From the IMG/VR virus record IMGVR_UViG_2537562189_000010: DNA of 32,348 nucleotides. One strand, 5' to 3'. A program made the translations under genes and the position numbers. Origin of the DNA: a virus. Lineage: Duplodnaviria; Heunggongvirae; Uroviricota; Caudoviricetes. Positions 8,040 to 31,286 of this stretch are shown one piece after another; position 1 is the stretch's first letter; each line of letters starts with the position of its first letter. A model generated the notes under the pieces. The model was not told where the DNA came from, did not search any database, and saw only the letters and a program-made list of their open reading frames with translations.

Positions 8040-8388
8040 AGTTCACTCTGGTGTTTATGCGTCCAAAATCCTGTGTCTCTGCCGTCACATGCAGCCTGCC
8101 CGGTGCCTCTTCGTTAATGAACACCGTCCCCGGAACCAGCCGTTCATCATCCTCAACCAGGAGGATAAGCCGGGTAATGATGTCGCTGCGCAGCGTCGGG
8201 CTGCGTTCGCCGATAAGCAGGGCGGCGATCCCGCTTTCGATAATGCTGTGCACCACGTCCTGGCCGATGCTGACCCGGTTATCACATCGCTGTGGCTCGT
8301 TGCCGCTGTTCAGCGTAAAACTGCCGTCAGTGATAAGCAGGTCGATGTAAAGCGATGGCGTGTTCATCCCGCGTAAAGCTCCGTCCAT
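8017..8388 (-). CDS. small baseplate protein (gpW / gp25-like)
   Basis: 123 aa, immediately after the tape measure and overlapping the J-like gene; synteny-based call. Confidence 0.45.
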   Translation of the reverse strand: MDGALRGMNTPSLYIDLLITDGSFTLNSGNEPQRCDNRVSIGQDVVHSIIESGIAALLIGERSPTLRSDIITRLILLVEDDERLVPGTVFINEEAPGRLHVTAETQDFGRINTRVNYERETGR

Positions 8389-10550
8389 TCATCCAGTTGC
8401 CCCGGCGTCATCGGGCTCTGCGTGTTGATTGTCAGATTGCCGAACGTCCGGCTGTTGTCGATACGGGTTGAGGTGTCCGTGCGTATCTGGTTGCGTATGC
8501 CTCCGGGTGGCAGCTCTGCGCTGATGCGGTTGCCTGCCAGTGCCGGGACGGCGGTTTCTGCAATCTGCGGAGGTACGGTGCTGCCTGTTGCGCCCCGCGT
8601 CATGGTGTTCACCTGCTCCGTGGGCTTCATGTCGATACTGATACCGGGGATTTTGTTCAGCTTTTCCGCAAGCCAGTTCCACGTCCGGTTAAACGAGTTT
8701 TTAATGACGTTCCATAAGTCCCCGAAGACGTTACCGATGATCCCCGCCATTTTCCGGAAGGATTCGACCGGGGCAGTCGGGTCAAATGCAGCCACCACGT
8801 CCTGCCACCCTCTGATAACGATGGCGAAGATGTCGACCAGGGTTCTGATCACGCTGATAACCACCTCCAGCGCGGGGGATATCAGGCTTACCGCTGCGGC
8901 CACCACGCGACCGCATGTTTCCCCGGCACGGGTGACGCTGTTCATCTGCCCCGTGGTCAGCTGAACCGGTGTGAACAGATCAGTGAAGGCGCCGAACAGG
9001 GTTTTTATGCCCTGCCATACCGGGGCCAGCGCACGGGCAATTTCACCGAACGCGGCAGTCACCGGGCTCATGGCGTCCAGTGCGCCGGTAAAACCATCAA
9101 TAAAGCCGCGAATAAAGGCTTTGATGGGCTGCCAGAACTTAATGGCCACCACCACCAGAGCGGCGATGGCGGCGGCAACCAGGAGGACCGGGGCGCTCAT
9201 GGTCAGAAACGACACGCCCGCCAGACGCGCGGCAAGACTGGTGGCAATGATGGCGCTGCGTACTTTTGTGAGTGCGAGCGTGTACAGACTCCAGACTGCC
9301 CTGGCGCCCTTTATGATGGCCTTATGGCCTTCCATGATGAAGCTGAACACACCCAGCACGATGTTCGTGACCGCACCGGCTGCGCCCAGCGCCAGCATGG
9401 TCAGCGTGATGTAACCCAGCCAGCGGGCGATGTTCGGGAACATGTTCAGCCAGCGCACGAACGTCGCGCCGATATCGGCAAAACGGCCAGCCAGTGGTGC
9501 GAGAATGGGGTAGAGGGCGTTACCGATGGCGGCCCGGATGTTGTAGAAGGAGGCCACAAGGCGGTCCCACGGGTCGGTCATGGCTTCCGCCATTTCCGTG
9601 GCACGCTTCATGCCGTCATTACGCCCCAGCGCTGATATGCTCCGGTTAAGCATTTCCTGCTGTCCCCAGAGTTTTTTAATCACGTCCGCGCCACTGCCGA
9701 AGGCGTCATCCAGCGCCTGTTGTGCCGCCACGTTGCCCTCGATGTTCCTGCCGAACCTCGCCTGCAGACGGTCGAGGATGTCACCCATGGGTAAAATCTT
9801 CCCGGTGGCATCGACAAAACTCATCCCCATTTTTTGTGCGGCAGCGGGGGCACTGCGCAGGAACTCCTCATAGATGCCTGATGCCTCGGTACCCATGGTC
9901 CGTGACAGGGTGCCCAGTATGGCAAACTGCTCTGCCATGCTGACGCCAAAATCCGCGCCCGCGTTTTTGGTGCCCTCAATAAGCTCCTGCATGGTGCTCA
10001 TTTCCACGCCGAACTGCTGAACCATCCACGCGGTTTTACCTGCCAGATCTTCAGCAAACCCCACGGCACCCATGGCAGAAAACTCACTGCGGAAACGGGC
10101 ACCCATGGCGGCAAGGTAGCCGCTCGCCTCTTCGCTGCTGACGCGGGCAGCCACAGCCAGGGTGCTGGTTGCTGCCGTCACACGGGGTAAATCCCCGTCG
10201 CTCAGCCCGTCCAGTGCGCCGCGAATATGCCATGCGGAACGGATGATCTCCGTGGAGGACTGACCGAATGCGGTCCCCAGTTTCATGGCCTGCGTGGTGA
10301 GGGCGGTCAGCGCCTGCGCCCCGACGCCTTTGGCCTCAAGCTCGCCCAGCGCCTTCTGCATCTCCCACGCCGGATCCATCGCGGCGCGGATACCTTCAGC
10401 CACGCCCCACAGTCCGGCCACACCCACACCGATACGCGCGAACGCGCCCTGCGAGCGTTCGGCGAATCCCGTCACGGATTCCTGAACCTGCCGCAGCGGG
10501 CGGGTAAGCTGGTCTGTCAGATTGATAATGAAATCCAGCTGGCTGGCCAT
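8364..10550 (-). CDS. tail tape measure protein
   Basis: 728 aa, Ala/Gly-rich with internal hydrophobic stretches (ITLTMLALGAAGAVTNIVLGVF..., VSFLTMSAPVLLVAAAIAALVVVAI...); preceded by a chaperone gene with a frameshift site. Confidence 0.7.
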   Translation of the reverse strand: MASQLDFIINLTDQLTRPLRQVQESVTGFAERSQGAFARIGVGVAGLWGVAEGIRAAMDPAWEMQKALGELEAKGVGAQALTALTTQAMKLGTAFGQSSTEIIRSAWHIRGALDGLSDGDLPRVTAATSTLAVAARVSSEEASGYLAAMGARFRSEFSAMGAVGFAEDLAGKTAWMVQQFGVEMSTMQELIEGTKNAGADFGVSMAEQFAILGTLSRTMGTEASGIYEEFLRSAPAAAQKMGMSFVDATGKILPMGDILDRLQARFGRNIEGNVAAQQALDDAFGSGADVIKKLWGQQEMLNRSISALGRNDGMKRATEMAEAMTDPWDRLVASFYNIRAAIGNALYPILAPLAGRFADIGATFVRWLNMFPNIARWLGYITLTMLALGAAGAVTNIVLGVFSFIMEGHKAIIKGARAVWSLYTLALTKVRSAIIATSLAARLAGVSFLTMSAPVLLVAAAIAALVVVAIKFWQPIKAFIRGFIDGFTGALDAMSPVTAAFGEIARALAPVWQGIKTLFGAFTDLFTPVQLTTGQMNSVTRAGETCGRVVAAAVSLISPALEVVISVIRTLVDIFAIVIRGWQDVVAAFDPTAPVESFRKMAGIIGNVFGDLWNVIKNSFNRTWNWLAEKLNKIPGISIDMKPTEQVNTMTRGATGSTVPPQIAETAVPALAGNRISAELPPGGIRNQIRTDTSTRIDNSRTFGNLTINTQSPMTPGQLDEWTELYAG

Positions 10551-16265: not shown

Positions 16266-16964
16266 TTACGCTGCATTAAGGGCGCTGATGCGTGCCCTGA
16301 TGCGCGCCCTGATACTTTTTACGCCAGCGGTACGGCTCAGTGCTGCCGCCTGTGCCAGGTATGCGTCTGCCTTTTCCAGTACGGCAGTATCATTAATCGC
16401 GGTGGCTCTCGGTTTGCCCGCCTCGTCGCGCAGAAGATACAGCCCGGCAAATCTGAACCACTTCGCGCGGATTTCCTCATGCAGCCGCCACGAGGTGGTG
16501 ACGTTCCTGAAGGTGCGCGAAAAATACGGTTCTATGCTGTGTCCGGCCTCGCTGTTGTCAGTGGCCCACTGCAGCACCGTGTCTGCCACGAAGGCGGGCA
16601 GGGTGCTGCGGAAGTTGTCCGGTGTGGCCTGGCCTTCACTGATGGCAATGTCTGCCCAGTCAAGGGCGCGACTCAGGTCGCCCGTGTCGAACAGCCAGAT
16701 GATGCAGTACACCAGTACCGGACAGGCGTGGCGCTTTCCGTCAGCGATATAGCGCTCCGCGACGGGCAGCCAGCGCGGCAGGAGAATGTCGCGCTTGAAC
16801 GCCAGCCGCTCTTCGCGGACCGGAAGACTGCGCAGCCGTGCCACATCGCGATCAAGCTCCGCGCGTAACAGGTGGAAGCTGACCGGGGAGGCCGTCAGCG
16901 CCTCCCGGCGTTCGAGTGCCTCCTGTGTGCGGATTTTCGCCCGGTGCCGCTGGCAGGGTGTCAT
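16266..16964 (-). CDS. M: terminase small / endonuclease subunit (P2 gpM-like); start placed at Met53 (MTPCQRH...)
   Basis: ORF track 16266..17120 begins at a GTG inside the capsid gene; first ATG gives about 232 aa directly after the capsid stop; P2 order O-N-M-L. Confidence 0.6.
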   Translation of the reverse strand: MTPCQRHRAKIRTQEALERREALTASPVSFHLLRAELDRDVARLRSLPVREERLAFKRDILLPRWLPVAERYIADGKRHACPVLVYCIIWLFDTGDLSRALDWADIAISEGQATPDNFRSTLPAFVADTVLQWATDNSEAGHSIEPYFSRTFRNVTTSWRLHEEIRAKWFRFAGLYLLRDEAGKPRATAINDTAVLEKADAYLAQAAALSRTAGVKSIRARIRARISALNAA

Positions 16965-22435: not shown

Positions 22436-22503
22436 ACTCACCAGCTCTCTTAACGGAATGCGGCGGGCGCTTTTCTTTGTAAATTAGTGTGCCCAGTCCC
22501 ATG

Positions 22504-22731
22504 CTACCTGTCCGCAGGGATCTCCTTATTTGTGTGGTTATGTATCTGTTGTAGATATTTCATCTTCCGAATGATGTCGGCTTTGACTTCAGGGTTGTCA
22601 ACGTTCAGGGTCGCATTACCGTTTGCGTCAACAATAAGTCGGTATTTTGCTGTTTGCTCCAGATTTGTATCAACATGTGATGCTACCGCATCCGTGTATC
22701 GGCGTAGTACTTTCCAAATAAGTGTTGGCAT
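22504..22731 (-). CDS. hypothetical protein, 75 aa (last gene of the early operon)
   Basis: ORF with a GAGGAAGAG Shine-Dalgarno upstream of the ATG; no recognisable motif. Confidence 0.5.
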   Translation of the reverse strand: MPTLIWKVLRRYTDAVASHVDTNLEQTAKYRLIVDANGNATLNVDNPEVKADIIRKMKYLQQIHNHTNKEIPADR

Positions 22732-22797
22732 ATCTCTTCCTCGTGGTTAGTGACTAACTTTTACCACATCTCATCTTTTTATATGTTTTCCTTTCGG

Positions 22798-22962
22798 TCA
22801 CGAGAGCAACCAGATAACCGCAACGGTTGCCGCGAAAATTCTGGCGATAAAGCCTGCTGTGAAGTGGCGAAACGGGTTTTCCCACGTCAGGAATGCCATT
22901 AAAGCAATCCATGCAATGGTAAAAATCAGTGCGCCCTTAACGGCGATAAACAGTTCGTTCAT
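22798..22962 (-). CDS. small hydrophobic membrane protein, about 54 aa (approximate coordinates)
   Basis: Hand-translated: MNELFIAVKGALIFTIAWIALMAFLTWENPFRHFTAGFIARIFAATVAVIWLLS, preceded by AAGGAGG; below the ORF-track length cutoff. Confidence 0.45.
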   Translation of the reverse strand: MNELFIAVKGALIFTIAWIALMAFLTWENPFRHFTAGFIARIFAATVAVIWLLS

Positions 22963-23192: not shown

Positions 23193-23593
23193 GGTGTGTT
23201 CCTTCTGTTGGCGGTTGAATGCACATAGCGGGCAATTGCCGCTTTGCGGTTAATTGTGACCAGTGTTCTGGTGAGTTCTGCGTTGTGTTTGTGTGCCTGC
23301 TCTTCGTGGTACTGCCGCATGATTTTTCCGGCAGGCGTGAGCGGCTCCGGCTCCCCGTGCGGACGGCGCGGACGAACGGCGACAAGCCAGCTGCGGTTAG
23401 TGCTGTCCGGTCGTCCGTTGAGTATGTCGGTGATGATGGCCGTGGTGGTGCGATCGGGACTGACGACTGTGATTTCCAGCTCATCGCCGGGTTGTGGTCC
23501 CGTGGCAATGTTGTTCAGGGTCAGTAAGGGCGTGCGCTGGCGCATCATTTCGTCAAAGCGCTGGCGCTGCATGGCGCAATAAAAGCGGGTCAT
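23189..23593 (-). CDS. hypothetical protein, 134 aa, translationally coupled to the replication gene
   Basis: Start codon overlaps the stop of the replication gene (ATGA); function unknown. Confidence 0.45.
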   Translation of the reverse strand: MTRFYCAMQRQRFDEMMRQRTPLLTLNNIATGPQPGDELEITVVSPDRTTTAIITDILNGRPDSTNRSWLVAVRPRRPHGEPEPLTPAGKIMRQYHEEQAHKHNAELTRTLVTINRKAAIARYVHSTANRRNTP

Positions 23594-26109
23594 TGTGGCG
23601 CCTCCGTATTCGGTGCGGGGGTGATATCAATGCGGCGGGTGCTGTCGTTCCAGTGCGCGGTGCGCCCGTCAGCCAGGCGCACGCGGGCACCGTGCCGGAC
23701 GGAAACGACGGCGCTTTCATGCAGCTGCACGCCCAGCGCATCAAGCTCGCGGGTGATTTGTGCGGTGATGTGTGGCTCAGCGGTCAGTGCGACACTCACG
23801 CGAACGCCGTCAGCGGGCGCACTGATGCCGCCGTTTTTCACGGTTTCCGTGTCAGGTGGCGGGTTTTTCAGCTGCCTGGTGAGTTGTTTTCGCTCTGTGG
23901 GGGTCAGTGACCTTAACCATTCACCCAAATCACCTTCAGGCAGGGTAAGTCGCTGCTCCCTGCGTTCGTCCGGCTGCCTTTCTGGCGGGTCGTTTATGGT
24001 CAGATTCTGGTCAGGGGGACAGTTATTGCCACGAGTCCAAGGTGCGGCAAAGCCGCACTCAACGTCAAAACCCTCGTCCGTGCGGTCTTCGTTTTCCGGC
24101 TTACGTCTGACCAGTTTCCAGGTGTCCGGGTGGGTGCATATGGTGTAGCGCTCCCCGAGTGACGGGGCGCGGACGCCGTAAATACGTTGCGGGAATTCGC
24201 CGTAGTCGTTGGCCTCTTCGGCAGTTTCGTATGCGGTGCGGACCAGGTACGTGTTGCGGGGAATGAGCACACCACCCTGGCGGGTGATATAGGTGGCAAA
24301 ACATCCCACGTCGGCGGCGGCCAGTATGGCGTCAATGTCGTCATGGTCCAGACGCTGCGGGGCAGCCGGGTTACGGGCCATCTGCCCGGCAAGGCGGCGG
24401 AGTTCGCGCCATACCTGGCGGGGCGGGATACCGAAGAACTGGAACTGGCGGATGCGGTGAAGGGCAGCCCAGCCGATGGCGTTCTCCACGGTTTCGGCCA
24501 TGGTTTTGCCTGATTCCTTATCGACGTAAGGTTTGCCGGTTTTCGGGTCATTCCCCATGAAGGCGCTGGCGTCCAGGTTCTTACCGATATAGGTCGCGAT
24601 ATAGCTCGCCGGTGTGCCTTTTGCCGGGTCGATTTTTTCGCATTTAAAACGCGGGGAGATATCATCACCCAGCTCTGCGCGGTCCTCCCTGATGGCGGCG
24701 TTGCGCATGATTTCAGTGATACGGGCTTCGTTTTCCGGGCTGGTGAATACCAGCATGTGCCAGTGCGGTGTACCGTCGTGGTGGGGCTCCACTGTGCGCA
24801 CGCCGTACCAGCCCAGCCCGGCCTTGTTGATGGCCCTGCGGACGGCGGCGAAAAAGCGGTAAACCAGATAATCACTGGCATCACGTACCGTTGCTCCGCA
24901 GTATTTCGGGTTCAGGCTGCCGTCATCGTTCACGCTGTGAAAACGGGAAGGGGCTGTGACGGTGACGAAAAACGCCAGGTCGCCGCGTGCTTCGGCGACC
25001 TGCTCCATTCCCCGGACGCAGGCCATCATCTCGTTACGGCGGTTACGCGGATTAGAGAGACCTGCCCAGTAGATATCCTCAAGGCTGAACCGTTCTCCTT
25101 CTTCGTTCTCGATGTCCCAGGCCTTCAGAAAATCGCGGGTGCGCTGGCGTTTTTCGCGCCAGTCCAGTAACGCTTCATGGCTGATATATACCGACGTCTT
25201 ACGTGACACCAGGCCTGCGGCGCGTAACAGCTCTTCACGCCAGATGTCCCGGAGGTGTCTTAACTGACTGTTCCACCATGTCGCACAGGAAAGGCGCATG
25301 ACCGCACCCGGCACCTGTTCCGGGTCGGGGGCGGTGCGGCGGTCGGGCCTGATTTCCAGCGACGGCCAGCAGGGTGGCGTGATACCCAGTTTTAACGCCA
25401 TGTGTGCCAGTGGCTGGTAGGTCAGTAACCAGGTGAACAGGTCATCGTCACCCCTGCCGGTCTTTTCGATGACCTCATCACATGCGCGCTCCAGTGCGGT
25501 GGAAAACGCGGTGGCGGTCAGGGTGGCAAGGCGCTGGATTTCGTCACGGCTCAGCTGCGGCAGCATAAGCAGTTCATCCAGCCGTTCGCGGGCGGCGGTG
25601 GCCTTAAAGGCCGGGGTGGCAAAGCGTTCATTCACACGGGCGATACGTTTCAGGCGGGCACGCAGCCCGTGACGAACGAAGTTATCCGCCGCGTATGCGC
25701 TGTTGTTCTTAAGCCCTTCCCGGCGTGCGCTCTCCTGTTTGCGGCTCAGGCGTGCCAGGTCCCGGATGAGCGGACCGGCAAGAAACGGCGGCAGGGCGCG
25801 CAGCTCCGCCATGGCTTCAGATACCAGTGTGGGCGGATTTTCGCGTTTGTGTCGCGCCAGTTTTTCCAGTCTGATCCGACGCTCTTCGTCGTGGTAAAGA
25901 TGCGAATTAATTCGCTTCCCTTCGTCTGTGGTTGTCAGAAAGGCGACGGTTTCTTCATCCAGTCTGGCGTCAGTGCGAATGTCCTCGTTGATGTAGCTCT
26001 GAATGGCCTGGCGTAATGCAGTTGGCTGTGCCCTGCCGAACGTTTCAGGATCGATAACCGGCAGCGGGGCGTTCCACGGGTACGCCAGTTGTGCGTTATG
26101 GTCGCTCAT
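23590..26109 (-). CDS. A: rolling-circle replication initiator, HUH endonuclease (P2 gpA-like)
   Basis: About 839 aa from the first ATG (ORF track 23590..26118); contains ...GTPHWHMLVF..., the HUH metal-binding motif of P2 A / phiX174 A-type initiators. Confidence 0.85.
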   Translation of the reverse strand: MSDHNAQLAYPWNAPLPVIDPETFGRAQPTALRQAIQSYINEDIRTDARLDEETVAFLTTTDEGKRINSHLYHDEERRIRLEKLARHKRENPPTLVSEAMAELRALPPFLAGPLIRDLARLSRKQESARREGLKNNSAYAADNFVRHGLRARLKRIARVNERFATPAFKATAARERLDELLMLPQLSRDEIQRLATLTATAFSTALERACDEVIEKTGRGDDDLFTWLLTYQPLAHMALKLGITPPCWPSLEIRPDRRTAPDPEQVPGAVMRLSCATWWNSQLRHLRDIWREELLRAAGLVSRKTSVYISHEALLDWREKRQRTRDFLKAWDIENEEGERFSLEDIYWAGLSNPRNRRNEMMACVRGMEQVAEARGDLAFFVTVTAPSRFHSVNDDGSLNPKYCGATVRDASDYLVYRFFAAVRRAINKAGLGWYGVRTVEPHHDGTPHWHMLVFTSPENEARITEIMRNAAIREDRAELGDDISPRFKCEKIDPAKGTPASYIATYIGKNLDASAFMGNDPKTGKPYVDKESGKTMAETVENAIGWAALHRIRQFQFFGIPPRQVWRELRRLAGQMARNPAAPQRLDHDDIDAILAAADVGCFATYITRQGGVLIPRNTYLVRTAYETAEEANDYGEFPQRIYGVRAPSLGERYTICTHPDTWKLVRRKPENEDRTDEGFDVECGFAAPWTRGNNCPPDQNLTINDPPERQPDERREQRLTLPEGDLGEWLRSLTPTERKQLTRQLKNPPPDTETVKNGGISAPADGVRVSVALTAEPHITAQITRELDALGVQLHESAVVSVRHGARVRLADGRTAHWNDSTRRIDITPAPNTEAPQ

Positions 26110-26522
26110 GCGTCGCACTCCCCGGCAGTTGCCGCCTGAAACGCCGCGCGGTACAGCACGAGAAGGCGCTGGTATTCACCGATAAAGTCTTCTGCGGTGT
26201 ATATGCCTTTCACGGCCACGCTGTGCGTTGTCATTTCCAGAACCAGCGCCATTTCTGACGACGACCAGCTGATGGCGGTGCTGTCGGTTCCGTTGATGTG
26301 AAATAAACCAAAGCCATCACCATCGCCTTTTACGTCCACGCGGTAACGGTCGTCAACGGTGAAGGAGAAATCCCCGTATGTGGTGACGCGTCCGGCGGCC
26401 TGTTTACAGGCGCGGCGGTAATAGTCGTGCCAGTCGTTCAGGCGGGAAGCCAGCCGGGGATCCACTGCCCACATCCAGTTAAAAAAATCCTGAATATCTG
26501 AAAGTCCCTTAACGCTCTTCAT
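26106..26522 (-). CDS. hypothetical protein, 138 aa, directly upstream of and coupled to the replication gene
   Basis: ATG preceded by GGAGG; its stop overlaps the replication gene ATG; its ribosome-binding site lies at the boundary of the tandem repeat. Confidence 0.5.
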   Translation of the reverse strand: MKSVKGLSDIQDFFNWMWAVDPRLASRLNDWHDYYRRACKQAAGRVTTYGDFSFTVDDRYRVDVKGDGDGFGLFHINGTDSTAISWSSSEMALVLEMTTHSVAVKGIYTAEDFIGEYQRLLVLYRAAFQAATAGECDA

Positions 26523-26590
26523 GAGAACCTCCGGTAACAGACGTGCGGAAGCCTCCCGCGCACGTGTGCGGGATGGCTTCAGGATGTTGT

Positions 26591-26818
26591 TTAGTGGTGG
26601 TGTTGCTGGTTGATAAGGTCCTGCAGTTCTGCCAGGTCTTCGGCCAGATAGCTGAAGACTGCCGCGTAATACCCGGCAGCGATACCGTCGTTAAGTCGGT
26701 GTAATACGTTTGACTGCATGATGAAGGAGACAGATGCAGCCCGATGGAGTCTGCGGTTGATTTCTGTGCGGATGTGAAGACGCTCAGCGCGGGCGCGCTG
26801 TTGTTTGCGGTTTGCCAT
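26591..26818 (-). CDS. 75-aa Arg-rich protein, copy 1 (unknown function; candidate RNA-controlled effector)
   Basis: Identical in protein sequence to copy 2 despite synonymous nucleotide changes; AAGAGG Shine-Dalgarno; basic N-terminus, acidic C-terminus ending in HHH. Confidence 0.7.
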   Translation of the reverse strand: MANRKQQRARAERLHIRTEINRRLHRAASVSFIMQSNVLHRLNDGIAAGYYAAVFSYLAEDLAELQDLINQQHHH

Positions 26819-27132
26819 GGTGTTTGGCCTCTTGTAGTAAGTTGTGAAAACTCACCAACCCGAGGCGGTAATCTCAGGGTGGCGAGACGTACAGGGTTAC
26901 CACAACCGGCTACAAGAGATCCCGGCCCGACCGAAGTCGGCCCCGTACGCCCCGCCATAATTCTGACGCAAAAAAGACGTGGCGATACAGTACGCACAAA
27001 AAAACCGCTGGCGCGGTTGTGCGCTCTTGTAGTCGGCGGGGTGGTAATCCCGGCACCCGTTTTATGAGGTGCGGGAAAACTGTAACCCGACCAGGCGAAC
27101 GCTGGCAAGCGGTTTTTTTGTGTGTGCATGGA
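26819..27132 (-). ncRNA. structured leader / antisense-type regulatory RNA region, copy 1 (c4/CI-like architecture)
   Basis: CTCTTGTAG (about 26829-26837) and again (about 27024-27032) are each the reverse complement of CTACAAGAG (about 26911-26919); GGTAA/TTACC inner pairing; minus-strand hairpin plus T7 terminator; UUCG-loop hairpin. Confidence 0.5.
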
Positions 27133-27202
27133 GAACGAACCTCCGGTAACAGACGTGCGGAAGCCTCCCGCGCACGGGTGCGGGATGGCTTCAGGATGTT
27201 GT

Positions 27203-27430
27203 TTAGTGGTGGTGTTGCTGGTTGATAAGGTCCTGCAGTTCTGCCAGGTCTTCGGCCAGATAGCTGAAGACTGCCGCGTAATACCCGGCAGCGATACCGT
27301 CGTTAAGTCGGTGTAATACGTTTGACTGCATGATGAAGGAGACAGATGCAGCCCGATGGAGTCTGCGGTTGATTTCAGTCCGGATGTGAAGACGCTCAGC
27401 GCGGGCGCGCTGTTGCTTGCGGTTTGCCAT
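27203..27430 (-). CDS. 75-aa Arg-rich protein, copy 2
   Basis: Same protein as copy 1; the only nucleotide differences are AAA/AAG (Lys), CGC/CGG (Arg) and ACA/ACT (Thr). Confidence 0.7.
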   Translation of the reverse strand: MANRKQQRARAERLHIRTEINRRLHRAASVSFIMQSNVLHRLNDGIAAGYYAAVFSYLAEDLAELQDLINQQHHH

Positions 27431-27745
27431 GGTGTGGCCTCTTGTGTAGTAAGTTTTGAAAACTCACCATCCAGAGGTTGCAATTCTGGGTGGTGAGACG
27501 TACAGGGTTGCAACCACCGGCTACACAAGACCCCGGCCCGACCGAAGTCGGCCCTGTACGCCCCACCATAATTCTGACGCGAAAAAGATGTGACGATGCG
27601 GTACGCACAAAAAAACCGCTGGCGCGGTTGTGCGCTTGTGTAGTCAGCGGGGGTTGCAATCCCGGCACCCGTTTTATGAGGTGCGGGAAAACTGTAACCC
27701 GACCAGGCGAACGCTGGCAAGCGGTTTTTTTGTGTGTGCATGTTC
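27431..27745 (-). ncRNA. structured leader / antisense-type regulatory RNA region, copy 2
   Basis: Segments CTTGTGTAG...GGTTGCAAT (about 27441-27485 and 27635-27660) are both complementary to GGTTGCAACC...CTACACAAG (about 27507-27529); the Shine-Dalgarno of the ORF lies inside the downstream segment; terminator (about 27609-27635) and UUCG hairpin (about 27535-27554) on the minus strand. Confidence 0.5.
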
Positions 27746-27752
27746 TGGTTTC

Positions 27753-28052
27753 TTACTGGTTCAGAAAAAAATCAAAAACCTTGTCAATGCGTTGCAGTAG
27801 CTCTTGCTGTATTGCTTCCGGCGTTTCCGGTTCACCTGGCGCCTCCAACGTCGCGCAGAAATCAGCGATTTCATGATGGAGCGCCAGGCGAATGGCAGGA
27901 GCCGTGGTTCTGGCGTGCTCCAGCTCATCCAGCAGTGCCAGCACAGCAGACGGCGAGAGCATTGCGCGAAATGCCAGTAATTTTTGAGGCGTTGCCATTC
28001 GTTGCAGGGCAAATGCCAGTTCGCGTAGCTTCTGGTGGTTGATGGTGCTCAT
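27753..28052 (-). CDS. hypothetical protein, 99 aa; paralogue of the 28341..28592 product
   Basis: C-terminal ...ADFCATLEAPGEPETPEAIQQELLQRIDKVFDF aligns with ...DDFTATLSGPGAPVTPGEIHRDLKRRIENAIDY of the other ORF. Confidence 0.5.
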   Translation of the reverse strand: MSTINHQKLRELAFALQRMATPQKLLAFRAMLSPSAVLALLDELEHARTTAPAIRLALHHEIADFCATLEAPGEPETPEAIQQELLQRIDKVFDFFLNQ

Positions 28053-28315
28053 GCTCTGGCTTCCTTCAGTAGCTGGTTAAACATGTGAGTAAGTGGATTG
28101 CTACACCCGAACGGCATCGGGTTTACGTGGTAAGAAGCCCGGCCTCCTGTTTTGCGAGCGCGACCACCTGTGCTGCGGTTTGTTCTGATGACTAAGCCAC
28201 CGCGCCAGAGTCGGCGTAACTCAGCATTAATGGCTGTGGTCTGGGTATTCAGTGCCGTGGCGATTTCACTTCCGCTGCACCCCGGATTGGCTGCGATGTA
28301 GTCTAGAATGGTCAT
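28049..28315 (-). CDS. small winged-helix DNA-binding protein, 88 aa
   Basis: ILDYIAANPGCSGSEIATALNTQTTAINAELRRLWRGGLVIR looks like a helix-turn-helix with a wing; coupled to the downstream gene. Confidence 0.5.
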   Translation of the reverse strand: MTILDYIAANPGCSGSEIATALNTQTTAINAELRRLWRGGLVIRTNRSTGGRARKTGGRASYHVNPMPFGCSNPLTHMFNQLLKEARA

Positions 28316-28340
28316 CGTGAGATCTCCTTTGCAGTTCCGG

Positions 28341-28592
28341 TTATTCAGTCGGGTTCAGGGTGTAATCAATGGCGTTTTCAATACGGCGTTTAAGGTCCCG
28401 GTGGATCTCACCTGGTGTTACTGGTGCGCCCGGACCGCTCAGCGTTGCCGTGAAGTCGTCGATTTCCTCCAGTAACAGATTGCGGAGTACGGCGATGTGG
28501 TGGCGTGCGTCTTTACCGGGTTTACGTGCGTTGGTGGTGTACTTGCTGATCATGGCCGCAGCTCTCCGTGGGCTTGTGTTTCTGATTTCCAT
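28341..28592 (-). CDS. hypothetical protein, paralogue of the 99-aa ORF; likely start at Met14 (about 28553, coupled to the upstream stop)
   Basis: Shares a C-terminal domain with 27753..28052; the internal ATG overlaps the stop of the upstream ORF. Confidence 0.45.
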   Translation of the reverse strand: MEIRNTSPRRAAAMISKYTTNARKPGKDARHHIAVLRNLLLEEIDDFTATLSGPGAPVTPGEIHRDLKRRIENAIDYTLNPTE

Positions 28593-28807
28593 GCCCCTCT
28601 GATGGCCGTTACTTCGCGAACGGTACTGGCAATCGCGGTGATTTGTGTTCCGTCAGCCAGATGGATGTAGAGATAATCAGCGTCTGACGGGCACGGCGTG
28701 GTCGTTGTGATCAAATGACTTTCCACCATGAACTCGTGGCCCACGGCATCGGTGAAACGCGTCAGCATGGTGGCGGTAAATATGCTGTTCATCGACCTGC
28801 CCCTCAC
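28550..28807 (-). CDS. hypothetical early protein, 85 aa
   Basis: ORF in the co-directional early operon; no motif recognised. Confidence 0.4.
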   Translation of the reverse strand: MRGRSMNSIFTATMLTRFTDAVGHEFMVESHLITTTTPCPSDADYLYIHLADGTQITAIASTVREVTAIRGAWKSETQAHGELRP

Positions 28808-30879: not shown

Positions 30880-30986
30880 CTGGTATCCTCCGTTATTGGC
30901 CCCTTTTTCGAATAGGGACCATGTAGAACCAATTGCGACTATTCTTGTGTTGCTATACACAAAAATTATTGGAGATTAGAAAAATT
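30880..30986. promoter_or_regulatory. immunity switch region between the divergent cox-like and C-like genes
   Basis: 107-bp AT-rich spacer; direct repeat AAAAATTAT (about 30961 and 30980); inverted repeat GAATAG...CTATTC (about 30911-30945). Promoter boxes not resolved. Confidence 0.45.
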
Positions 30987-31286
30987 ATGTCAATACCGCA
31001 AAATGAGAAATTAAAACTTATCAGAGAGTCCGAACGGATGAAAATGAAGGAACTATCTGATTTAATTGGAATTAATTACTATACATATCATGGCTATGAA
31101 AGTGGGAAATCTAAGATGCCTCTTGATTTTGGGATCCTTCTTTTGCGGCACGCTCGTTTCCGTAAATACCGTGACTGGTTTTTGTTCGATGAGGTCGAAC
31201 CAAAGGCCGGGCAGGTGGTACCGGCTCTCGCACACATTGGGCAAAGCGAAGCGGAATCATCCCACTCCGGCAAGAAGACTGGTTAA
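30987..31286 (+). CDS. C: immunity repressor (P2 C-like), 99 aa
   Basis: Same length as P2 C; central ...YESGKS... and C-terminal ...PALAHIGQSEAESSHSGKKTG resemble P2 C as recalled; upstream of and co-directional with int. Confidence 0.7.
   Translation: MSIPQNEKLKLIRESERMKMKELSDLIGINYYTYHGYESGKSKMPLDFGILLLRHARFRKYRDWFLFDEVEPKAGQVVPALAHIGQSEAESSHSGKKTG

Follow-up and report, generated by a model that had tools for sequence, protein, structure and literature searches.

Two predicted P4-type RNA immunity cassettes of different specificity stand in tandem in the early operon of a P2-like prophage

The window, the whole stretch of 32,348 nucleotides (nt) analysed here (IMG/VR record IMGVR_UViG_2537562189_000010, Caudoviricetes), is a P2-like prophage. 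Its early operon lies on the minus strand, runs leftward and ends in a P2 gene A-type replication protein, and within it stand two closely similar units that each carry a leader and a 75-amino-acid (aa) open reading frame (ORF). A preliminary description, made from the letters of the sequence, had placed two units of about 612 bp head to tail between a 99-aa gene and the gene upstream of the replication initiator; we confirmed this arrangement and add that the units are read from the minus strand, on which the genes, RNAs and sites given below for the window also lie except where the plus strand is named. In this study, we examine the RNAs, the protein and the origin of this tandem, and propose that each unit is probably a complete RNA immunity cassette of the type known from the satellite phage P4, the two cassettes having different specificities.

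The upstream unit occupies 613 nt (27133..27745) and the downstream unit 612 nt (26521..27132). A MAFFT alignment of the two spans 614 columns with 96% identity, and a repeat search returned a unit spacing of 612 nt; Tandem Repeats Finder reported no repeat in the region because its longest period, 500, falls below that spacing. The leaders, of about 311 nt, differ in 35 alignment columns, and 17 of these lie within or adjoin six short recognition sites, which bears out the earlier statement that the leaders had diverged in clusters. As had also been reported, the two copies of the ORF (27203..27430 upstream and 26591..26818 downstream) are 3 nt apart with all differences synonymous (codons 5, 17 and 18), and the encoded proteins are identical. 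The 3' untranslated regions differ in a single column. A GC-rich hairpin without a U-run follows the ORF stop (27160..27192, with its twin at 26548..26580; fold z-score -3.5). It is kept in all relatives, one sub-family having an alternative stem sequence, and could be a stabiliser or a processing site.

Each leader contains, in order, a promoter-like site, an RNA related to IsrK and to P4 seqA, and a C4-type antisense RNA. The sigma-70-like promoters (TTGCCA-18-TACAGT) lie at 27691..27720 in the upstream unit, a position equivalent to that of P4 PLE, and at 27079..27108 in the downstream unit, and were the only promoter-like matches in a scan of positions 26000-28700. Their -35 hexamer is conserved to at least 90% across 47 distinct leaders of the family. 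The predicted promoter ends 6-7 nt before position 1 of the isrK model, and the predicted start falls on the first base of the isrK match. That match (Rfam RF01394, gathering score 50) reaches 59.6 bits at 27609..27684 in the upstream unit and 65.0 bits at 26998..27072 in the downstream unit. Site mapping placed two recognition sites in each RNA (b1 27659..27652 and a1 27643..27635 upstream; b1 27047..27041 and a1 27032..27024 downstream), and a terminator scan found an intrinsic terminator at the 3' end of both matches (27629..27614 followed by a U-run, and 27018..27003) and none elsewhere. Gathering score, promoter-like site and terminator together assign both RNAs to the IsrK/P4 seqA class, their promoter activity being predicted.

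The C4/CI-type RNAs follow at 27486..27573 (78.0 bits against a gathering score of 45; fold z-score -5.8) and at 26875..26962 (80.4 bits; fold z-score -4.7). Both matches span the full model, positions 1-87 of 87 (Rfam RF01695, in one clan with P4 CI RNA), and the earlier suggestion that the leader acts as a specificity-determining regulatory RNA of the C4 or P4 CI type agrees with these matches above the gathering score. In the upstream unit the predicted recognition stretches of the RNA are a' CUUGUGUAG (27529..27521), in a hairpin loop, and b' GGUUGCAA (27515..27508), which is single-stranded; their downstream-unit counterparts are a' CUCUUGUAG (26918..26910) and b' UGUGGUAA (26904..26897). 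As in C4 RNAs generally, these two exposed stretches are complementary to sites both upstream and downstream on the same transcript. The upstream partners are the a1 and b1 sites of the IsrK-like RNA. The downstream partners form target regions, identified by complementarity and covariation, at 27441..27483 (b2 UUGCAACC 27483..27476; a2 CUACACAAG 27449..27441) and at 26829..26871 (b2 UUACCGCC 26871..26864; a2 CUACAAGAG 26837..26829), and in both units a2 overlaps the AAGAGG Shine-Dalgarno sequence of the 75-aa ORF. By position, site a here corresponds to site b of phage P1, and site b here to site a of P1.

A further complementarity was noticed around the terminators. Each promoter is closely preceded by an A7CCGC stretch, the complement of GCGGU7 in the IsrK terminator; the two stretches belong to 21-nt arms of 90% complementarity (27717-27737 with 27603-27623; 27105-27125 with 26992-27012). 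In the minimum-energy fold of the longer transcript this pairing supplants the terminator hairpin (-57.2 kcal/mol, z -4.3), and the model suggests that transcripts from the early promoter might read through where those from the unit promoter stop. The A7CCGC stretch is invariant among relatives and hence gives no covariation signal.

The recognition sites were compared across 69 units from 67 loci (the window, three Escherichia coli (E. coli) genome loci, two GTDB genomes and 62 IMG/VR contigs), which reduce to the 47 distinct leaders; covariation was run on one alignment of these. They hold 15 a' and 7 b' alleles in 25 combinations. Between a'/b' and the downstream a2/b2 sites, 94.2% of cells are paired and 195 cells are changed on both sides, compared with 56 ± 6 double changes in shuffled controls (0 of 500 reaching the observed value) and at most 69 in slid controls. 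Between a'/b' and the a1/b1 sites of the IsrK-like RNA, 99.0% of cells are paired and 196 are changed on both sides (again 0 of 500 shuffles; slid controls at most 53). Cognate duplexes average -13.4 kcal/mol at site a and -10.1 at site b, as against -6.1 and -4.5 for pairs of different alleles. These results provide strong comparative evidence that base pairing underlies mutual recognition among the three elements of one unit, and that the code diversifies. A putative hairpin with b2 in its loop (columns 236-248/259-271) is 93% paired and near-invariant, and its covariation did not rise above that of shuffles (132/500).

Pairing with the unit's own sites comprises 16-17 of 17 positions in both window units and 15-17 of 17 across the family, and each of the two C4 RNAs is matched at all four of its own target sites. 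The b site discriminates clearly between the units (-12.3 kcal/mol on its own partner vs -6.8 for one C4 RNA, -8.4 vs -3.2 for the other), and the a site discriminates less than the b site.

An open frame of 410 aa in the same region (26509..27741), about 204 aa per unit, invites the reading that an 'Ash' or 'transcriptional repressor' protein is encoded here in place of RNAs. No stop interrupts the frame in either unit, it runs on for at least 174 aa in 47 of 48 related units, it matches PHROG families named transcriptional regulator or repressor, and PGAP annotates an 'ash family protein' here in some genomes. All three differences between the 75-aa ORFs, however, are non-synonymous in this frame; many relatives lack its ATG (CAGCACGCAAC in place of ATGCACACAC); and variation is compensatory at the RNA level, in a region that matches two Rfam models. 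On these grounds the 410-aa frame was rejected as a gene, and the reading as an 'Ash' or repressor protein is very improbable. A parallel exists in P4, where the Pfam Phage_ASH match of the 'cI protein' ORF coincides exactly with the CI RNA, although the P4 immunity factor is a processed RNA and not a protein (PMC4825925; PMC3632133).

The Pfam match in P4 (L067; ORF at 8168-8584, PF10554) covers the CI RNA together with the seqC stretch, and these regulator and Ash families appear to represent translated sequence from a conserved RNA locus. PF10554 served as the 'epsilon' marker in a survey of P4-like satellites (PMC8628076), whereas the true P4 epsilon matches PF25738.

The preliminary description had left the 75-aa product to a homology search, and this placed it in the P4 epsilon family. 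The product scores 29.1 bits against Pfam PF25738 ('Derepression protein family'; cut-off 27), matches phrog_3688 (E=3e-32), and aligns with P4 epsilon itself by BLASTP at 36% identity over 50 aa (E=4e-9). For comparison, P4 epsilon scores 170 bits against PF25738, and the two copies from a second tandem, in E. coli strain Bongo, score 30.7 and 27.7. Profile match and direct similarity thus both point to the epsilon family, with a small margin over the profile cut-off. A tblastn search of phage records with the ORF as query did not retrieve P4; the link to epsilon comes from the Pfam profile and the direct pairwise comparison. Across 43 distinct gene sequences the median ratio of non-synonymous to synonymous substitution rates (dN/dS) is 0.27. 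The ORF is therefore a real gene, and the purifying selection claimed earlier for the protein holds family-wide. No solved structure was found among relatives of the protein, and BLASTP gave no alignment between it and P1 Icd. One public contig among the relatives (L007, IMGVR_UViG_2563366990_000002) carries the Illumina adapter AGATCGGAAGAGCACACGTCTGAACTCCAGTCAC within its 75-aa ORF (about 620-660), and is a chimeric or untrimmed record.

Where the two units meet, the sequence reads GGAGGTTC-GTTCTCC-ATGCAC, with the heptamer GTTCTCC (27130..27136) after the GGAGGTTC that ends the upstream unit and before the ATGCACAC that opens the downstream one. This junction looks as if the Shine-Dalgarno and start region of the neighbouring 138-aa gene (GGAGGTTCTCATG) had been joined, at CATG, to the beginning of a unit. 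The heptamer is present only in the window and in E. coli Bongo and in 0 of the 65 single-unit loci examined, and a 60-nt junction probe is matched at 100% identity in Bongo (NZ_CM153263.1), an independent complete genome. A repeat of this kind could in principle be an assembly artefact, such as a chimera of two co-resident P2-like prophages, and the 2 to 4 modules per genome found in many E. coli could mislead short-read assemblers. Because the same junction recurs in Bongo and its heptamer is foreign to single-unit loci, an artefact appears very unlikely; the flanks are, moreover, colinear on both sides with the closest single-unit relative.

That relative, the prophage of E. coli O22:H8 strain 154 (L001), is colinear with the window at 98.5-99.6% identity, and the window has exactly one extra 612-nt unit. 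The single unit of strain 154 and the downstream unit have the same sequence (100% identity), and the upstream unit is the extra one. The upstream leader in turn has a perfect match over 260 nt (100% identity) in the single unit of E. coli N51, and an IMG/VR locus (L005) matches it at 99.7%. The N51 ORF differs from the window ORF by 9 nt despite the identical leader, and L005 joins an upstream-type leader to a downstream-like ORF; leader and ORF alleles evidently reassort, to judge from these combinations.

According to the preliminary description, one unit had been duplicated in place, after which the leaders diverged under selection while purifying selection held the protein constant. Three synonymous differences between the ORFs against 35 differing leader columns fit such a history, as does the compensatory nature of the leader differences among sites. 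What speaks against it is that both leader alleles occur unchanged as single units in other genomes, that leaders and ORFs reassort freely (the N51 leader and ORF being a case in point), and that the two Bongo ORFs are 9 amino acids apart. We regard in-place duplication as improbable, and on this point the preliminary description was not upheld. Since both leaders exist as single units elsewhere and alleles reassort, the tandem was assembled from pre-existing alleles, and the contrast between conserved ORF and diverged leader is inherited from the reassorting allele pool and did not arise in place. The sequences point to an origin by recombination, in which two existing alleles were juxtaposed at the CATG microhomology near the start of the 138-aa gene. 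Since the window copies of the ORF are nearly identical, we also weighed concerted evolution or gene conversion, and rejected it on three observations: in Bongo the copies are 21 codons apart, for each of the four ORFs a single-unit locus has a relative at least as close, and L005 mixes an upstream-type leader with a downstream-like ORF.

A single unit is the rule in related prophages, which the preliminary description had proposed to examine for unit number: in each of the 65 other loci a single ORF stands at a fixed distance from a single C4 RNA, and tandems occur in 2 of the 67 loci examined, those of the window and Bongo. The module itself is common, being found in 1,252 of 5,426 complete E. 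coli genomes, many of which carry their several modules in different prophages, and in records of P88-like phages. Gene A-type replication proteins are present in all sampled loci; the carriers are therefore P2-like phages and not P4-like satellites. The 60-nt junction probe, which detects near-identical junctions only, found 1 of the 5,426 genomes (Bongo). A tandem-specific pattern that recovers the window and Bongo found none in IMG/VR or JGI metagenome contigs, and a GTDB genome scan with the 75-aa protein gave only 2 loci, both single units.

The Bongo tandem belongs to a different P2-like prophage, beside dmsA and with a different upstream gene; through both units that prophage aligns colinearly with the window, with 94% identity. 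(The small RNA STnc130, an Rfam match, lies beside this integration site; L002 13855-13989.) Its ORFs differ at 21 codons, 12 synonymously and 9 non-synonymously, and identical proteins are therefore not inherent to the tandem. The four units of the two tandems all have different a'/b' combinations, each internally matched. Bongo carries three cassettes in all, the tandem plus a single unit in another prophage, again with all allele combinations different; the single unit shares its b' allele with one of the Bongo tandem units and its a' allele with the downstream unit of the window. Because the junction is common to two prophages with four specificities, it suggests either one origin of the tandem followed by allele replacement, or spread by recombination.

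These findings bear on whether the doubling matters to the phage. The tandem could be a neutral, probably transient recombination product whose units work singly, the doubling conferring neither an immunity nor an escape phenotype. Its rarity (2 of 67 loci, the junction in one complete E. coli genome, none in metagenome contigs) is what such a product would show, and the identity of the window alleles with those of extant single-unit phages suggests recent assembly. Against this, the same junction is found in two prophage backgrounds that differ in integration site, upstream gene and all four allele combinations, so the tandem has persisted through, or spread across, considerable diversification, and all parts of all four units are intact. 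We treat neutrality as a tentative alternative. It is likewise a speculative proposal, and a doubtful one at present, that the tandem is a selected stack of two orthogonal cassettes that provides dual exclusion of heteroimmune relatives and escape from a resident's RNA immunity.

For the action of a single cassette, the scheme we propose builds on the features described above (the RNA families, the signals for promoter and terminator, complementarity and covariation among the three partners, and the homology of the protein), and it borrows constitutive transcription, processing, translational block, polarity and anti-repressor activity from P4, P1 and Gifsy-1. A constitutive sigma-70 promoter, expected from the consensus match and from homology to P4 PLE, would start a transcript at the first base of the IsrK/seqA-like RNA, whose intrinsic terminator would end most transcripts. 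The C4/CI-type RNA would be excised from those that read through, by analogy with P1 and P4, in which C4 excision is RNase P-dependent. Its a' loop and single-stranded b' would then pair with a2 and b2, as complementarity and covariation indicate. As with P1 icd/ant and in P4, this pairing would block translation of the ORF, and polarity would lower expression of the 138-aa gene and gene A. Covariation indicates that the same C4 stretches also pair with b1 and a1 of the IsrK-like RNA; the outcome might be reinforced termination, as in P4, or titration of C4 by the short RNA such that translation is switched on, as in Gifsy-1. P4 epsilon derepresses the helper prophage P2, and by analogy its 75-aa homologue most likely binds a P2-type C repressor and thereby promotes lytic expression. 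Because the recognition sequences of the two units differ and the three partners match within each unit, the prophage should produce two C4 RNAs that are for the most part orthogonal, each gating its own copy of the anti-repressor gene, and the locus should, judged from these matches, be a dual-specificity RNA immunity locus.

The order of promoter, seqA, CI and seqC upstream of a replication operon, with the last target at the ribosome-binding site, is that of a P4-type system, and CI-dependent premature termination or translational block, with superinfection immunity as the result, is the function predicted from that likeness. That the window holds two intact P4-type cassettes of different specificity, each gating one copy of an epsilon-like gene, we hold with good confidence; the explanation as a whole, with a complete RNA immunity cassette and anti-repressor gene in each unit, two specificities and a tandem made by recombination, we consider probable. 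Several points weigh against it. The upstream C4 RNA retains 14 of 17 in-register pairs (G-U included) on the targets of the downstream unit, and the downstream C4 RNA retains 13 of 17 on those of the upstream unit; with flanks included, the a-site duplex of the upstream C4 RNA reaches -14.6 kcal/mol on the downstream target vs -15.7 on its own. The two window units are predicted to be largely orthogonal, not provably so. The homology to epsilon is modest (29.1 vs 27 bits; 36% over 50 aa). Transcription, processing, pairing in the cell and phenotype are all predictions. Finally, the tandem is very rare and may have no selected function.

The RNA immunity cassette itself is textbook P4 and P1 biology, and the window therefore reveals no new mechanism. 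What appears to be new is the doubling, together with the combinatorial pool of alleles: in the literature the general IsrK-C4/P4/P1 framework was found (PMC4825925, PMC3632133), and nothing on the module in P88-like phages or on tandem cassettes. A P2-family, helper-type phage with the seqA-CI-seqC-epsilon module of satellite P4 bears on the source of P4 immunity and derepression and on possible cross-regulation between helper and satellite. The family also constitutes a large natural set of matched three-way alleles (decoy, repressor and operator) that reassort at two independent positions, which makes it a candidate panel of orthogonal RNA regulators and a system for studying how the specificity of RNA immunity diversifies. 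If the proposed reading is correct, P2-like phages would carry a combinatorial RNA barcode immunity of at least 15 x 7 freely reassorting alleles built from P4-like parts, and the contest among helper, satellite and phage would be fought partly at the level of RNA-RNA recognition. The tandem offers a natural test case of whether stacked specificities broaden immunity or allow escape. Were it a selected stack, the prophage would shut off anti-repressor and replication functions in incoming relatives of two heteroimmune classes, and one anti-repressor copy would always be translatable, allowing escape from a resident's RNA immunity.

The genes around the units are those of a P2-like early operon. 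The 138-aa gene (26106..26522; phrog_3237) is the downstream neighbour, and its GGAGG Shine-Dalgarno sequence sits within the end of the downstream unit; its product has no similarity to P1 Ant1, and a Pfam-level domain search found no Ant, Bro or KilA domain. The replication initiator of the P2 gene A family (GPA; 23590..26118; Pfam PF05840, E=2e-106) follows in the same operon. Beyond the early operon, terminase and portal genes lie on the plus strand (compare the annotation of the near-identical strain 154 prophage), and an integrase gene, also on the plus strand, extends past the right end of the window. The upstream neighbour is the 99-aa gene (27753..28052), an Ead/Ea22-like gene that matches phrog_4144 (E=1e-61). 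The same family is matched by an 83-aa ORF (28341-28592, E=1e-10) two genes upstream of it in the same operon, and the pair is a second, much older local duplication. Compared with the strain 154 prophage, short stretches of the window at 30899-31155 and 22447-22807 are unmatched; one of them separates the cox-side operon from the repressor/integrase side, and the immunity region of the protein repressor may have been exchanged. The structural gene region contains a 12-nt tandem repeat at 16285-16313 (2.4 copies of CTGATGCGCGCC), which is probably trivial.

Among known systems, P4 is the nearest. The order of elements is the same and both RNAs are homologous, Rfam placing isrK at 8692..8615 and C4 at 8507..8420 in P4, where they are called seqA and CI RNA. 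The promoter is in register (P4 PLE TTGCCT-17-TATAGT vs TTGCCA-18-TACAGT here), the six sites align with P4 seqA, seqB and seqC, the last of them over the Shine-Dalgarno sequence in both, and an epsilon-family gene and a replication gene follow in the same operon. The differences are that the window element is a P2-like, helper-type phage with gene A, whereas P4 is a satellite with the alpha primase; that the epsilon homologue directly follows the RNA here, whereas about 245 nt separate CI from epsilon in P4; and that the protein has 75 aa instead of 95, the recognition sequences differ, and the cassette is doubled.

The immI region of P1 comprises, according to the annotation of its record, promoters, a1/b1, c4, a2/b2 and a 73-aa ORF, followed by the anti-repressor. 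As in P1 and P7, specificity would reside in two short complementary stretches, with the downstream sites at the ribosome-binding site of a small ORF. The 75-aa ORF occupies the position of Icd, but it is not Icd and no Ant homologue follows; the RNA part is shared with P1/P7 immI, in which C4 controls icd and ant, and the protein part is not. P1 and P7 have one cassette each, which differs between the phages, whereas the window has two specificities in one genome.

Gifsy-1 of Salmonella (isrK, orf45 (STnc1160), anrP) is similar: its IsrK RNA has a promoter of its own and a terminator that is leaky, a C4/CI-like RNA made by processing comes next, and RNA pairing gates translation of an anti-repressor (PMC4825925). 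The short IsrK of Gifsy-1 can activate translation in trans (PMC4825925), which is a possible role, by analogy, for the a1/b1-bearing RNA here. Gifsy-1 differs in being a lambdoid prophage with a single copy, whose AnrP, described as anti-repressor-like, is reached through a 45-codon upstream ORF. The order of isrK followed by C4 is found also in phage P88 and in both Bongo units. P88-like phages of the P2 family (Xuanwuvirus P88, P884B11, vB_EcoM-569R5 and Citrobacter phage Shae_phiSM) have this module too, in the same position within their early operon, as one unit where the window has two.

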